From: Candidatus Limnocylindria bacterium | GTDB taxonomy: Bacteria > Chloroflexota > Limnocylindria > QHBO01 | Assembly: GCA_038248895.1 (NCBI GenBank) | Contig: JBBRWZ010000001.1 | Location: 7,760-71,759 of the forward strand | DNA length: 64,000 nucleotides | Direction: 5' to 3' | Shown: positions 22,990-41,711 of the stretch, piece by piece | How positions within the stretch are numbered: the stretch's first letter is position 1 | How the letters are laid out: each line of letters starts with the position of its first letter | The notes under the pieces: generated by a model | What the model was told of the DNA's origin: nothing | Seen by the model: the letters and a program-made list of their open reading frames with translations, nothing else | Databases searched by the model: none | Translations under genes and position numbers: made by a program

Positions 22990-23280
22990 ACGCTGCAGGT
23001 GCCTCGCACGTTCGAAATATCGACCGATGTGCGCGGGAAATCCCCGGTGCGAGCGGTTCGTTCGAAATATCGGTCAGGTGCGCGCACGAGCGCCGCGCGT
23101 CGGTGGGGCTCACGCACGCTGGCGTTCGAAATATCGGCCAAACCGCGCGCCTCGGTGGGCTCGCGCACGAATCGGGCGATATATCGAACGGGCGGCGGGC
23201 GGCGGGCGACGCAACGGCGGCGGCGGGCGGCGGGCGACGGAACGGCGGCGGCGAGCGGTGGGCGACGGCGGCGGCCAATC
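22990..23280 (+). repeat. Repeat element, copy A. Four TTCGAAATATCG-type boxes at 23011, 23061, 23125, and 23177 (the last in inverted CGATATATCGAA form), followed by a GC-rich tandem-repeat tail (GGCGGGCGACGnAACGGCGGC x2).
   Basis: AT-rich 12-mers stand out against the GC background. Box spacing is 50/64/52 nt. Homologous to copy B at 35690-35960. Confidence 0.75.
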
Positions 23281-35689: not shown

Positions 35690-35960
35690 CCCGATCCCGT
35701 GGCCCCGTGTTCGATGTATCGAACAATTTGAGCCAGACGTGGGCGGCGCGTGAGGTTTGTTCGAAATATCGGTCAGCGGTGAGCGTGAGGCCTGCGGCTG
35801 CGCGCGGCTCCCGCACGCCAGCGCTCGATTTATCGGTCACACCCCACGCGACGGCCCTGAACTGCGCGAATCGGTCGAAATATCGAACGCGGCGGCGCGA
35901 ACGCGGCGCGAACGCGGCGCGGGGCGCGGTGGGGCGCGGTGGCGGCGACGGCGCAAACCG
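35690..35960 (+). repeat. Repeat element, copy B. Boxes TTCGATGTATCGAA (35710), TTCGAAATATCGG (35760), TCGATTTATCGG (35825), and TCGAAATATCGAA (35875), then a GC-rich tandem tail (CGCGAACGCGGCG x2, GGGGCGCGGT x2).
   Basis: Box spacing 50/65/50 matches copy A. Overall identity with copy A is about 75%, and the orientation is the same. It sits inside the opuC operon between the last permease gene and the substrate-binding gene. Confidence 0.75.
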
Positions 35961-38970: not shown

Positions 38971-40677
38971 ATGCGTCGCCACCGCCTGGCCCCCCTCCTC
39001 GCCGTCGTCGCAGCGTGCCTCGCGAGTGCCGCCGTCGCCGCCGGGCCACCCTTCCCGAATCCTGTCACCGACGAGGCGGTGTACGACACCGCCGGCGCAC
39101 TGGCCTCGGGCACCGTCACCGCCGTCGAGAAGCGAATCGACGAGATCGAGACCCGTTCCGGCGCCGAGGTCGTCGTCTACACGCAGCTCGACCCGTTCAT
39201 CACTGAGTCGGAGAACCTGGCGGCGGCGCGCGCCCTGATGGACCAGTGGGGCATCGGCCGGTCTGGCTTCGACGATGGCCTCGTGATGATGATCGGCCTC
39301 AACGACGACCTCGTCCATGGCAAGGTCAGCCTCTTTGCGGGCGCGGGCTACAAGTCGGCCTACCTCGACGAGGACGCGCTCAAGGGCATCATCGACCAAG
39401 ACTTCGTGCCGCCGGCGCGCAACGGCGACCTCGACAACGCCGTCCTCTTCACGATGGAGGCGATCGACCGCGCAACGACGCCGGAACGTCGCGACGCGTT
39501 GAATCGGGCGCGGCAGCTCAACGCCGTGGTGGGGCTCATCGGCGGGCCGCTGGCGCTGCTCGTCGTCGCCGGGGGCGCCTACCTGAAGTGGCGACGCGAG
39601 GGCGACGATCCCGACATCCTCGACAGCCCGTCGATCCTCGCGGCGGGCCCCCCGGCCGGGATGACCCCCGCGCTGGCAACCGTCGTCCGCGAGGGCCGCG
39701 CGACGCGCCATAGCCTCAACGTCACGCTGCTCGAGATCGCGAGCACCGGCCGCATCGGCTTCGCCAACCTCGACCAGGTACGGCAGGCACGGTCGGACGA
39801 GAAGGCCGATCCGGAGACCGATCCGGCGATCCATCTCCTCCGGGCCGCTCCATCGTCGCGCGCCCTCTCGCCCGTTTCGAGTCGGGCGTACGACAGCATT
39901 CGGCAGCTCGCGGGCGGCAACGAACGGCTCAGCCGGTCGCGCCTCTGGAAGCTCAACGACGCGCTGGGCGAGACGTCGGAGCAGCTCGAGCGCGAGTCGG
40001 TGCGGCTCGGCTGGCTGACACGCGAGCCGACGCTCGCGATCCATGGTGCTTCGCTCGTCGCCGGGCTCTGGCTGGCAGGCGGCATCGGCGCCGGTGCGCT
40101 CGGCATCTTTTTGCCGTCGAGCGGCCTCGTGCTGGTCGGGATCGGGCTCGGCATCGGTGCGCTCATCGCGTTCGGCTTCGCGCGCGCGATGAGCAAGCGA
40201 ACGACGCAGGGCGCCTACGCCGATGCGATGCTCAAGGCCTTTCGACGCACGCTGAAGCTCACCATGGAGCAGTCGCGCTCGATGGAACAGGTCACGGCCA
40301 ACGAGGAGGTGCGCCTGCTGGCCGATACCCCGGACAAGGCGGTGGTGTGGGGCATCGCGCTGGGGCTCTACGCGGAGCTGCGGGGCGTGCTCGAGCGGAC
40401 GCTCGCCGATGCCCCCGAGGCGGTGCGCTCCGCGTCAACGTACTACCCGATGTGGCTGGGCTCGTCGAGCGGCTCGACGTACAACGCGGCCGACACCAGC
40501 ATCGCCCACGGGGGCGGCGGCATCTTCTCGAGCTCCCCCGTCCCCGACATCGGCGGCATGTTCAACGCGCTCGGCAGCATGGGCAACACGCCACCGTCCA
40601 CCGCGAGCTCGTCGGGGGGCGGTGGGTTTTCCGGCGGTGGCTCGTCGGGCGGCGGGGGCGCGAGCGGCAGCTTCTGA
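38971..40677 (+). CDS. TPM-domain (DUF477) plus DUF2207-like membrane protein with a Gly-rich C-terminal tail
   Basis: Signal peptide, a TPM phosphatase-like domain (AVYDTAGAL...VVVYTQ), two or more TM helices, and a low-complexity tail ([20 protein letters not shown]). Confidence 0.6.
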
Positions 40678-40762
40678 GGCATCGCGGCTCGTTTCAACCG
40701 CCGCCGTTGCAACGCCGGTCGAGGGCTGGCGGATTCGTGACAAACGCGCCATACTTGGCGTG

Positions 40763-41659
40763 ATGGCACAACAACGACGAGACAATCGACGACCCGGCGG
40801 GGGCAGGGGTGGTTTTGAACGCGGCGATCGGGGCGGATTCGACCGTCAGGAGCGCGGCGGCTTTCCACGCGCCGAGCGCGGCGGATTCAATCCATCCGGC
40901 GCACGACCCCCGGCGGACCGTGGTGGCTTCGGCCGCCGCGACGCCGCTCCGGGCGGCTCCGGGTTCGGCGCTCGACCGGATGCCCGACCGGATGCCCGGC
41001 CGGCATTCCGCGAGGACGACGGCGGCATGAACATCCGCCTCACGCCCCGCGGCCTCGGCGCACTCAAGACGCTCGCGGGAGAGGCTGGCATGCGGCCCGG
41101 CGAGCTCGTCACGCGCTGGGTCGAGGAGCGTCTCGAGGCGGAGCGCGGAGGGGCCTCCGCGGAGCCGATGCGGACCGCGCTCGACGCCCGCATCGACGCA
41201 CTCTCGGCACGGATCGACGCGCTCGAGTCGCGAAGCACCGACGCGACGTCGCGGCCGCCCCGGGCGGATGTCGCCGGCGACGCCCCGGCGGCGAGCACGT
41301 CCACGGCTGCAGCGACGGACCCGGCCGAGACGCCCGCTCCCCGCCGGCGTGGCCGGCCACCGAAGACGGCGACGGCTGCGACCAGCCGGACCACCCCGGC
41401 GAAGCGTGGACGCCCGCGCAAGGCCGCGACGGCCGGCTCCGGCAAGCGCGTCCCGCTGCACCAAGAGATCATCGCGGTGATCACTGAGCGCGGCCCCCAG
41501 ACCGCCGCCGACCTCGCCGTCGCCATCACCGAGCGTGGTGTCTTCACGCCGCCACGCTCCGGCAAGCCGCTCGACGCCGCCTCCGTCAACAGCCGCGTCA
41601 GCAACCCCGTCTATCGCGACCGCTTCGCGCGCGACGGGCACCGCATCACGCTGGCCTGA
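40763..41659 (+). CDS. Novel DNA-binding protein. N-terminal RGGF-repeat region, ribbon-helix-helix domain, AT-hook motifs (RGRPPK, KRGRPRK), and a C-terminal HARE-HTH-like winged helix. A shorter product could start at the alternative Met at 41027.
   Basis: Five RGGF units are encoded with synonymous codon variation (agg/cgg/cgc/cgt, ggt/ggc/gga, ttt/ttc). That pattern indicates selection at the protein level. MNIRLTPRGLGALKTLAG...ELVTRWVEERL is RHH-like. LHQEIIAVITERGPQTAADLAVAITERGVF...FARDGHRITLA is HARE-HTH-like. Confidence 0.6.
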   Translation: MAQQRRDNRRPGGGRGGFERGDRGGFDRQERGGFPRAERGGFNPSGARPPADRGGFGRRDAAPGGSGFGARPDARPDARPAFREDDGGMNIRLTPRGLGALKTLAGEAGMRPGELVTRWVEERLEAERGGASAEPMRTALDARIDALSARIDALESRSTDATSRPPRADVAGDAPAASTSTAAATDPAETPAPRRRGRPPKTATAATSRTTPAKRGRPRKAATAGSGKRVPLHQEIIAVITERGPQTAADLAVAITERGVFTPPRSGKPLDAASVNSRVSNPVYRDRFARDGHRITLA

Positions 41660-41682: not shown

Positions 41683-41711
41683 GATGGCCGCCGGTGATCC
41701 CGGCGGCCATC
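41683..41711. terminator. Perfect 12-bp stem / 5-nt loop hairpin (GATGGCCGCCGG-TGATC-CCGGCGGCCATC) between the convergent RHH-HARE gene and the dodecin gene. Putative bidirectional terminator.
   Basis: Read directly. The stem is a perfect reverse complement. Confidence 0.55.

Follow-up and report, generated by a model that had tools for sequence, protein, structure and literature searches.

The window, a stretch of 64,000 nucleotides, contains on its forward strand an open reading frame that extends from 40763 to 41656, is closed by a stop codon at 41657–41659 and encodes a product of 298 residues. This is not a chance open reading frame because 428 homologues and 111 genomic loci were found, and the segment 40763–41659 is a real, conserved gene of Limnocylindria, an uncultured bacterial class of soil and freshwater. 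The gene, its elements and the basis on which each was assigned are as follows.

40726..40732, + strand: −35-like box CTGGCGG (CTGGCGC or TTGCGC in orthologues), from conserved upstream columns
40750..40755, + strand: −10-like hexamer CATACT, 7 nt 5′ of the ATG, from the orthologue alignment
40763..41659, + strand: full coding sequence, 298 amino acids plus stop, pI ~11.4, from the open reading frame, homologues and loci
40763..41026, + strand: disordered Arg-rich N-terminal tail, residues 1–88, net charge +6, from pLDDT, dN/dS and charge
40763..40807, + strand: N-terminal motif MAQQRRDNRRPGGGR, with the family form M-[PAST]-[YF]-[DEN]-R-R-x-D-R-R-P-G-G-G-R, from full-length homologues
40805..40930, + strand: five [D/E]RGGF units at residues 15–18, 23–26, 31–34, 39–42 and 53–56, read from the sequence
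40973..41003, + strand: 12-nt DNA tandem repeat, 2.6 copies, encoding ARPDARPDARP, from Tandem Repeats Finder
41027..41146, + strand: ribbon-helix-helix (RHH) domain, residues 89–128, opening at the internal Met, from fold and strand pattern
41162..41251, + strand: long helix with heptad pattern, residues 134–163, from the AF2 helix and weak Pfam coiled-coil matches
41342..41365, + strand: AT-hook 1, RRRGRPPK, residues 194–201, near-invariant, from a Pfam match at threshold and conservation
41402..41422, + strand: AT-hook 2, KRGRPRK, residues 214–220, present in some orthologues only, within the best Pfam AT_hook stretch (residues 214–223)
41447..41656, + strand: HARE-HTH-type winged helix, residues 229–298, from the fold and a transitive Pfam link
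41683..41711, no strand assigned: GC-rich hairpin with a 12-bp stem between the gene and the convergent dodecin gene, seen in the sequence

The same neighbours surround the gene in all 80 kept loci where the contig reaches far enough. A gene for a TPM/DUF2207 membrane protein is immediately upstream in 58 of 64 loci, and the convergent dodecin gene is present downstream in 70 of 80; the hairpin is probably a terminator shared with the latter. Only 248 matching clusters were found among 1.84 billion representatives, and the gene appears to be a chromosomal, syntenic core gene confined to the class Limnocylindria (Chloroflexota). Four bins named Methylomirabilota, Steroidobacteraceae, Acidimicrobiia and Angelobacter, which would have placed homologues in other phyla, have the same neighbours as the Limnocylindria loci with 50–90% identity and are probably misbinned Limnocylindria contigs. 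The initial annotation proposed the TTCGAAATATCG boxes as candidate DNA targets. These boxes are real but lie 5–18 kb from the gene and near other genes, no evidence was found tying them to the 40763–41659 protein, and the proposed link was rejected. A GCTGG...CCAGC pair recurs upstream of the gene in one subclade only.

Translation could start at the ATG at 40763 or at the internal Met at 41027. Public gene calls begin at the internal Met in the exact public match, P0001, and in ~70–80% of homologues; the codon is ATG in all 63 loci compared and is preceded by an SD-like element in 40 of the 63. These observations favor the view that only a 210-residue protein is made and that the RGGF region is an untranslated leader or intergenic DNA. 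Against it, no stop codon interrupts the frame over at least 56–122 codons 5′ of the internal Met, and in ~75 of 80 related loci this upstream frame begins with a conserved Met-led motif; the family form of the motif heads the open frame in ~70 loci. In addition, the dN/dS of the tail in 17 orthologue pairs is 0.035–0.35, as compared with 0.12–0.28 for the remaining protein. The sequence D-[DE]-G-G directly before the internal Met is conserved while its third codon positions vary synonymously. A non-coding interpretation of 40763–41026 was also rejected, as an Rfam search of this region gave no credible match.

The upstream sequence also argues for the long start. In 67 unique orthologous upstream regions, the most conserved columns are positions −36 to −31, and we infer that the CTGGCGG box serves as a −35 element and not as the binding site of a regulator. 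The pattern TAnnnT, starting at −16 to −12 and ending 6–10 nt before the ATG, is present in 61 of the 67 regions, whereas an SD-like motif precedes the upstream ATG in only 5. The clade of the window has the hexamer [C/G]ATACT, in which A2 and T6 are kept and T1 is lost; CATACT is thus a weaker −10 match than most orthologues have, and a scan for the strict sigma-70 consensus found no promoter at 40750..40755. Because the conserved −10 box is 6–10 nt from the ATG and is not accompanied by a Shine-Dalgarno sequence, there is strong support at the sequence level for a promoter of the gene's own that would give a leaderless mRNA beginning at the 40763 ATG, so that the 88-residue tail would be translated. 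The 40763 start put forward in the initial annotation, together with translation of the N-terminal region, is therefore favored by the open frame and its conserved motif, the dN/dS of the tail and the placement of the −10 box. The 41027-start protein as sole product is largely refuted, and we regard it as very unlikely; a short isoform that lacks the tail may be made from the internal Met as an additional product. It follows that most public gene calls cut family members short by 56–122 residues, as a result of the leaderless start and the low-complexity 5′ region, and the same annotation error probably affects other proteins of such genomes.

The tail has pLDDT values below 50 in the AF2 model. 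Within its N-terminal motif, M1, R9 and R10 do not vary among 21 full-length homologues, and conservation is 90% or more at G13, G14 and R15. The five RGGF units were previously described as having different synonymous codons, and this is directly visible in the sequence (AGG GGT GGT TTT, CGG GGC GGA TTC, CGC GGC GGC TTT, CGC GGC GGA TTC and CGT GGT GGC TTC). Tandem Repeats Finder shows no DNA-level repeat spanning the units, and such a repeat was rejected as their source. The 12-nt repeat encoding ARPDARPDARP looks, from its sequence, like recent repeat growth within the tail. As a conserved feature, RGG did not survive comparison with the orthologues: apart from L022, tails with at least three RGG[FY] units are restricted to the clade of the window, and RGG is absent from most orthologues, the tails of which are built elsewhere from DRPxF, GDRPYQPRP or PDRG repeats. 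Tail length varies from 56 to 122 residues, yet 62 of 67 orthologues carry a net charge between +6 and +8. The numbers of positive (13–29) and negative (7–18) charges are closely correlated (r = 0.92, slope 1.02), the standard deviation of the net charge is 1.0 as compared with 3.5 when the pairing is permuted, and the aromatic content is ~7% across orthologues. Judged by these comparisons, what is conserved in the tail is not RGG but the balance of its charges and its share of aromatic residues. The data strongly support a tail composed of rapidly turning-over, charge-neutral repeats of Arg with Asp or Glu, separated by Pro/Gly spacers and including Phe or Tyr, in which the net charge is held at ~+7, and they give equally strong support to the location of most of this charge in the conserved MxYDRRxDRR motif. 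A homologue search with the tail alone gave 154 word-sharing candidates, none with E ≤ 0.001. The tail represents a clean natural dataset in which repeats are replaced wholesale between species while the charge of +6 to +8 is kept and dN/dS is ~0.1.

The region that follows the internal Met has the fold of a ribbon-helix-helix (CopG/Arc/MetJ) domain, with an N-terminal β-strand and two helices of ~12–17 residues connected by a tight turn. The strand, M89-N-I-R-L-T94 (M-S-I-R-L-D in the family), has the alternating hydrophobic and polar pattern of this fold; R92 is invariant, conservation reaches at least 90% at I91 and L93, and the polar residues would contact bases. Thus the ribbon-helix-helix assignment of the initial annotation stands with respect to fold and strand pattern but not with respect to Pfam profile membership, as the window protein has no Pfam RHH match even at E ≤ 10. 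Among 120 family members, RHH_10 is matched in 12 (best E 0.012) and PSK_trans_fac in 6, all below threshold, and the RHH profile (A4) gave only chance matches to PDB sequences (E ~1). DSSP assigns no strand to the RHH region of the single-chain AF2 model; the two-stranded antiparallel sheet that RHH proteins form as obligate homodimers is not seen because the prediction covers the monomer only. In the long helix beyond this domain, Leu and Ile residues of LDARIDALSARIDAL are spaced 4,3,4,3, and there are weak Pfam coiled-coil matches to DUF7310 in 25 of 120 members and to HalX in 10. The modelled helix is likely to be a coiled-coil oligomerization element.

Both of the AT-hook cores noted originally are present. 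The Pfam AT_hook model (PF02178) scores 17.8 bits, with a cut-off of 17.4 bits, and the core residues G197, R198, P199 and K201 of AT-hook 1 are at least 90% conserved among 120 homologues. Two or more GRP cores occur in the linker of 8 of 52 orthologues. The segment around the AT-hooks has pLDDT values below 60 and contains the R-G-R-P core with basic flanks.

The C-terminal domain has a winged helix-turn-helix fold. Its earlier assignment to HARE-HTH is upheld by the fold and through a relative, although the window protein itself has no Pfam HARE-HTH match even at E ≤ 10. HARE-HTH (PF05066, gathering threshold 25.9 bits) is the commonest winged-helix Pfam match in the family and is found below threshold in 20 of 120 members (best E 0.0015). 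The relative P0207 passes the cut-off with 27.0 bits over residues 169–238, and this segment is 47% identical to the window domain, with an hhalign probability of 99.4% and an E value of 1.8e-21. The link to HARE-HTH is transitive only, because P0207 is above the cut-off and the window protein has no Pfam match. The whole protein and the winged-helix profile (A3) gave only chance matches to PDB sequences, with E ~1. A conserved insert of 13 residues (259–271), which contains P-R-S-x-K-P-L-D, is located between helices 2 and 3 of the HTH and is assigned as loop by DSSP.

The initial annotation regarded the protein as a member of an undescribed family, and this agrees with the searches: the AT_hook match at threshold is the sole Pfam hit, NCBIfam gave only weak, meaningless matches, neither database has a family-level model, and the literature search found no paper on the family. 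The modules themselves are known. What is new is their combination in one class-restricted protein, an Arg-rich disordered tail with three known DNA-binding modules, which is described in no database. We are highly confident of the architecture and the start codon taken together.

The best explanation, to which as a whole we give about an even chance, is that a syntenic core gene apparently confined to the class encodes a very basic, multi-module DNA-binding protein that works by the mechanism proposed here. The RHH domain would dimerize and contact the major groove through its two-stranded sheet, and the helix that follows would stabilize the dimer or pair two dimers. The AT-hook would read minor grooves that are narrow and AT-rich, a kind of site seldom found in a genome of ~70% GC, and the winged helix would provide a second duplex contact per subunit. 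Because each of these elements would add contacts or pairing, the oligomer could bind or bridge several DNA segments and in this way serve as a global or architectural regulator. Weak, multivalent contacts to nucleic acid, or between tails, might be added by the polyampholytic tail. We propose this role of an oligomeric, architectural or global DNA-binding protein tentatively and rate it a little short of even, and nucleoid association of the candidate protein is plausible. The high pI (median 11.2 across the family) and the three DNA-contact modules joined to an oligomerization helix are consistent with a chromatin-type role. Nucleoid-associated proteins and xenogeneic silencers form a functional class marked by high abundance, by low-specificity or AT-biased binding throughout the genome and by oligomerization on DNA; the pI of 11.4, the several DNA-contact modules, the heptad helix and the class-restricted, syntenic gene with a promoter of its own are indirect indications that the protein may belong to it. 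A more specific possibility, which we consider improbable, is that the protein is the Limnocylindria counterpart of Lsr2 or H-NS and thus a chromatin protein that arose independently in a high-GC lineage. In this case an RHH-coiled-coil oligomer with AT-hook and HARE-HTH would coat AT-rich DNA, some of it perhaps foreign, or form bridges between its segments, and the charge-balanced Arg/Asp tail, kept at ~+7 net while its repeats turn over, would condense the nucleoid through multivalent contacts. If this is true, one more independent family would join the silencing or bridging proteins of bacteria, and the tail would be a natural bacterial case of a disordered "sticker-and-spacer" region in which selection conserves charge.

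The core architecture alone does not imply a global role, because the RHH-helix-winged-helix core is also found in shorter paralogues (P0176), which sit inside metabolic operons and resemble ordinary local regulators. The protein could by analogy be a sequence-specific transcription factor, autoregulatory or local, in which the tail and AT-hook only tune affinity. We view this as possible but somewhat unlikely: a pI of 11 with three DNA-contact modules is unusual in a simple repressor, and a palindromic operator in the promoter was rejected, as inverted repeats are not generally enriched there (mean best arm over all loci 3.31, as compared with 3.16 ± 0.25 in shuffled sequences). The neighbours (osmolyte transporter, TPM membrane protein, dodecin, PHP, PTE and GDH) are of unrelated function, and with the downstream gene convergent the locus has no regulon that would obviously belong to it. 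A further reading would make the protein the RHH antitoxin of a toxin-antitoxin pair, or else a partition protein of the plasmid type (ParG or omega). Neither a toxin nor a ParA gene adjoins, however; the flanking positions, where a type II antitoxin would have a co-oriented toxin gene, are occupied by the TPM/DUF2207 and dodecin genes, which are conserved housekeeping neighbours, and the gene is chromosomal, apparently in one class only and fixed in synteny. This interpretation is contradicted by synteny and is hardly credible.

An RNA-binding or RNA-polymerase-associated factor was considered as well, in which the HARE-HTH domain would dock on polymerase in the manner of the delta subunit. 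With nascent RNA bound by the Arg-rich tail, such a factor would have a chaperone, anti-termination or condensate role. We judge this distinctly improbable. The analogy on which the initial annotation drew, that of RNA binding and phase separation by eukaryotic RGG boxes, is weaker than was claimed because every unit in the window is charge-neutral. In a tri-RGG box, RGG triplets are separated by 0–4 residues in a net-positive region. The five RGG of the window are 5 residues from their neighbours (e.g. F-E-R-G-D), and each unit has one acidic and one basic residue. Like the RGG/RG boxes of the FUS, hnRNP and nucleolin type, the tail is disordered and of low complexity and repeats R-G-G followed by an aromatic residue, but it differs in that its [D/E]RGGF units are charge-neutral and 8 residues apart, and in that orthologues carry non-RGG repeats such as DRP instead.

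In its winged helix, and in the extra residues that separate helices 2 and 3 of the HTH, the C-terminal domain resembles the HARE-HTH family (PF05066), which includes the N-terminal domain of the RNA polymerase delta subunit, ASXL and the N termini of restriction enzymes. According to PMC11037411, which cites Aravind and Iyer 2012, HARE-HTH has an extra helix inserted within the HTH motif, whereas the insert in the present model is a loop rather than the extra helix described there. No description was found of HARE-HTH fused to RHH and AT-hook.

Among the closest known nucleoid proteins, MatP, the organizer of the Escherichia coli Ter macrodomain (3vea), has an N-terminal four-helix bundle and lacks an AT-hook, a winged helix and a disordered tail; it belongs to the lineage of the Gammaproteobacteria and has no sequence similarity to the window protein. 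CdbA, the RHH nucleoid-associated protein of Myxococcus xanthus (6sbw), comprises the RHH only, with 48 residues in the matched chain, and binds c-di-GMP (PMC7156744). Unlike the window protein, it has no Arg-rich tail, AT-hook or winged helix, and no sequence relationship to it was detected in the PDB profile search with the RHH. AT-hook-like motifs define the silencers Lsr2, H-NS and MvaT, and Lsr2 acts in high-GC genomes, in which AT-rich DNA stands out (PMC4466236, PMC8476142). These basic proteins share with the window protein an oligomerization module and an RGR or AT-hook-like minor-groove reader, but there is no sequence or fold relationship, and in the Limnocylindria protein oligomerization would be by RHH and helix, with two further DNA-binding domains. 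Bacterial chromatin proteins are known in detail for few phyla only. For the Chloroflexota, a concrete candidate is now offered by this class-restricted, syntenic and highly basic protein and its three DNA-contact modules.

The gene under study and its immediate flanks have these features in window coordinates.
40675–40677: stop codon of the TPM/DUF2207 membrane-protein gene that lies 5' of the frame
40763–41659, forward strand: open reading frame, 298 codons and a stop
41027: internal Met codon (residue 89)
41683–41711: GC-rich hairpin with a 12-bp stem, between the stop of the gene (41659) and that of the convergent dodecin gene (41734), probably a bidirectional terminator
This frame contains every element listed in the initial annotation, namely the RGGF units, the MNIRLTPRGL... 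block, the C-terminal block, and two RGRP cores. A chance frame in GC-rich DNA is ruled out by 428 database homologues of the product and by matches at 111 loci in a collection with one genome per species. The five RGGF units, at residues 15, 23, 31, 39, and 53, are each preceded by an acidic residue, and reading of the codons bears out the claim that they differ synonymously, with a different codon set for every unit. Tandem Repeats Finder detected no DNA-level repeat across the units; its sole report was a 12-nt, 2.6-copy repeat at 40973–41003 that encodes ARPDARPDARP. The full-length protein has a pI of 11.4 (family median, 11.2).

Public gene calls mostly place the start at the internal Met: the database protein P0001, which is 100% identical, has 210 residues and begins at 41027, and ~70–80% of the homologues are called from this Met or from ad hoc starts (MDDGG, VPRGADDGG). 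However, four independent results favor the start at 40763 that had been proposed initially. Upstream of the internal Met the frame is open for at least 56–122 codons in ~75 of 80 related loci and begins with the conserved motif M-[PAST]-[YF]-[DEN]-R-R-x-D-R-R-(P)-G-G-G-R. Purifying selection is indicated by the dN/dS of this upstream segment (0.035–0.35; Nei-Gojobori, 17 orthologue pairs), which is equally low as or lower than that of the rest of the protein (0.12–0.28). The four residues preceding the internal Met, D-[DE]-G-G, are conserved while their third codon positions vary. Finally, in the 60 nt that precede the long ATG, 61 of 67 unique loci have a TAnnnT hexamer whose first base lies at −16 to −12, a CTGGCGC or TTGCGC box is conserved at −36 to −31, and only five loci have a Shine-Dalgarno-like motif; this placement of the boxes and the scarcity of the Shine-Dalgarno-like motif strongly support a leaderless mRNA, made from a conserved promoter of the gene's own, with its first base at or next to the long ATG. 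A caveat is that the hexamer in the window's own clade reads [C/G]ATACT (40750–40755), with A2 and T6 retained and T1 lost. Translation of the N-terminal tail (residues 1–88) is thus strongly supported, and a short form from the internal Met as sole product is largely excluded. The internal Met has an ATG codon at all 63 of 63 loci, 40 of which also have a Shine-Dalgarno-like GAGG created by the D-E-G-G codons before it, so additional initiation may occur there beside the long form.

At loci L001–L080 and L084 the family is shortened in public gene calls, most homologues beginning at the internal Met, and consequently ~260–350 nt of real coding sequence are annotated as intergenic (40678–41026 in the window). 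Other calls join the gene to the upstream TPM/DUF2207 gene (P0131, 691 aa; P0194, 400 aa). The error in annotation is systematic and results from the leaderless start together with a 5' region of low complexity. Two further features lie in the spacer that separates the −35-like box from the −10 box. In the 'MPY[DE]RRPDRRPGGG' subclade (L017, L024, L025, L033, L035, L058, L060, and L076) it contains an inverted repeat, (C)GCTGG(CG)...(CG)CCAGC(G), at −42 to −16 from the ATG with at most 8 bp per arm, which is not enriched family-wide and could be a clade-specific operator. In many orthologous promoters (L009, L014, L020, L027–L031, L037, L038, L046, L049, L050, L064, L065, L070, L071, and L080) it contains an AT-rich TTTCAAA, TTGAAA, or TTTAAA tract in GC-rich surroundings, conceivably an AT-hook target for autoregulation.

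An AF2 model of the window protein, built from a 120-sequence alignment, comprises the following segments.
Residues 1–88: disordered, pLDDT below 50
Residues 89–128: extended segment and two helices, pLDDT 79–93
Residues 134–163: long helix, pLDDT about 80–91
Residues 164–228: disordered, low pLDDT
Residues 229–298: three helices and a β-hairpin, pLDDT above 95
The presence of ribbon-helix-helix (RHH), helix, AT-hook, and winged-helix modules is strongly supported. The proposed RHH agrees with the model of residues 89–128, although the window protein has no match to Pfam RHH, or to Pfam HARE-HTH (PF05066), even at E ≤ 10. The long helix has L/I residues spaced 4,3,4,3 in LDARIDALSARIDAL, a heptad pattern. 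The AT-hook claim stands, with Pfam AT_hook just above threshold (17.8 versus 17.4 bits); within the family the first hook (RRRGRPPK) is conserved at 90% or above, and the second occurs in only a minority of orthologues. HARE-HTH is the commonest winged-helix Pfam family among the 120 members (20 members, best E 0.0015) and the top Pfam match of remoter relatives with the same C-terminal domain, which an exhaustive profile search recovered. One of these relatives, P0207, scores 27.0 bits against HARE-HTH over residues 169–238 (cut-off 25.9), and the same residues align to the window domain with 47% identity (hhalign probability 99.4%, E 1.8e-21), so that the suggested HARE-HTH identity of the C terminus is supported transitively but not directly. 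According to a published description (PMC11037411), the HTH of HARE-HTH contains an additional helix; at this position the family has a 13-residue conserved insert (P-R-S-x-K-P-L-D) that is modelled here as a loop. The winged helix is also fused C-terminally to a KAP-family P-loop NTPase (P0256, 824 aa), an XRE helix-turn-helix protein (P0264), and a hydrophobic protein that, as read from its sequence, is probably membrane-embedded (P0258). Given these three fusions it behaves as a mobile module, and conflict systems may be among the contexts.

RGG is not what is conserved in the tail. Tails with three or more RGG[FY] units are confined to the clade of the window (the window and L001–L003) and to L022, and the repeats of other clades are DRPxFG, ERPPRDFA, GGDRPYQPRP, SDRP, PDRG, or REEGGYTPRP. 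The tails share an Arg content of 18–32%, Pro/Gly spacers, and a median of about 7% Phe plus Tyr. Among 67 unique tails of 56–122 residues, positive charges (13–29) and negative charges (7–18) covary with r = 0.92 and a slope of 1.02. Of the 67 tails, 62 have a net charge of +6 to +8; the standard deviation of the net charge is 1.0, as compared with 3.5 (lowest, 2.7) in 2000 permutations of how positive and negative counts are paired. This covariation at near-constant net charge shows that the repeats are charge-neutral polyampholyte units, with the surplus positive charge located mainly in the conserved N-terminal motif. Eukaryotic RGG boxes, in contrast, are net-positive. The RGGF units noted initially therefore exist, but direct transfer of the eukaryotic RGG roles, RNA binding and phase separation, is weakened.

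The family is small, since only 248 of 1.84 billion cluster representatives matched at E ≤ 0.001 in the exhaustive profile search. Of the 80 loci that the scan retained, all but five are in Candidatus Limnocylindria or Chloroflexota metagenome bins; one exception is titled only 'uncultured bacterium', and the others (L019, L068, L071, and L080) are in bins of Methylomirabilota, Steroidobacteraceae, Acidimicrobiia, and Angelobacter. These four contigs have the full Limnocylindria gene order at 50–90% protein identity and are probably misbinned. The gene is syntenic and appears confined to one class. It lies in conserved housekeeping DNA, in the order glycine-betaine-type ABC transporter, DUF1684, DUF4307, TPM/DUF2207 (directly upstream in 58 of 64 loci), the gene itself, the convergent dodecin gene (found in 70 of 80), PHP/HhH protein, phosphotriesterase-family protein, and glutamate dehydrogenase. 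In several orthologous loci the gene and the dodecin gene are only a few nucleotides apart.

The window also contains the TTCGAAATATCG boxes pointed out in the initial annotation, with 10 matches at up to two mismatches as compared with 1.0 expected. They form two clusters.
23011–23188: first TTCGAAATATCG cluster
35710–35887: second TTCGAAATATCG cluster, directly upstream of an OpuAC-type substrate-binding gene (35939)
Some boxes overlap their own reverse complement and are thus partly palindromic; the clusters look like a putative operator array for some regulator.

We give an architectural or global DNA-binding role for the protein close to, and at most, an even chance. The RHH would dimerize and read the major groove, and the heptad helix may stabilize or pair the dimers. 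In MatP, which organizes the chromosome, a coiled coil stabilizes or pairs RHH dimers. The minor grooves of AT-rich DNA, scarce in a host genome with a GC content of about 70%, would be read by the AT-hook. A second duplex contact per subunit would come from the winged helix, and the tail may add weak multivalent contacts. With several DNA-contacting modules in each oligomer, the protein could bind or bridge several DNA segments.

The main rival, an ordinary operator-specific regulator, is less likely. The protein would then resemble its shorter paralogues (P0176 and P0149 among them), which have the RHH-helix-basic linker-winged helix core without the long arginine-rich tail. The gene for P0176 (L081, 5001–5612, in a Limnocylindria bin) has dipeptidase/amidohydrolase genes on one side and an oligopeptide ABC transporter on the other, neighbors that suggest a local regulator. 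Such a regulator would be expected to have a conserved palindromic operator in its own promoter, and no general enrichment of one was found in the family. A delta-like association with RNA or RNA polymerase is considerably less probable; neither the basic charge nor the modules for duplex DNA accord well with it. An antitoxin or partition protein is largely excluded by the lack of a toxin gene or parA at the locus, around which no mobile-element signature was found either.

For a phylum that has been little studied, the gene product is a candidate chromatin protein open to testing, and its tail illustrates how repeats in a disordered region of a bacterial protein can turn over naturally while charge is conserved. 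Each of the four kinds of module is already known; their combination has no record in Pfam, NCBIfam, or the literature searched, in agreement with the initial view that it is undescribed. The closest functional analogues are the RHH nucleoid protein CdbA (PMC7156744) and MatP, with its RHH and coiled coil, together with the AT-hook-like silencers Lsr2, H-NS, and MvaT (PMC4466236, PMC8476142), none of which is related to the protein in sequence.
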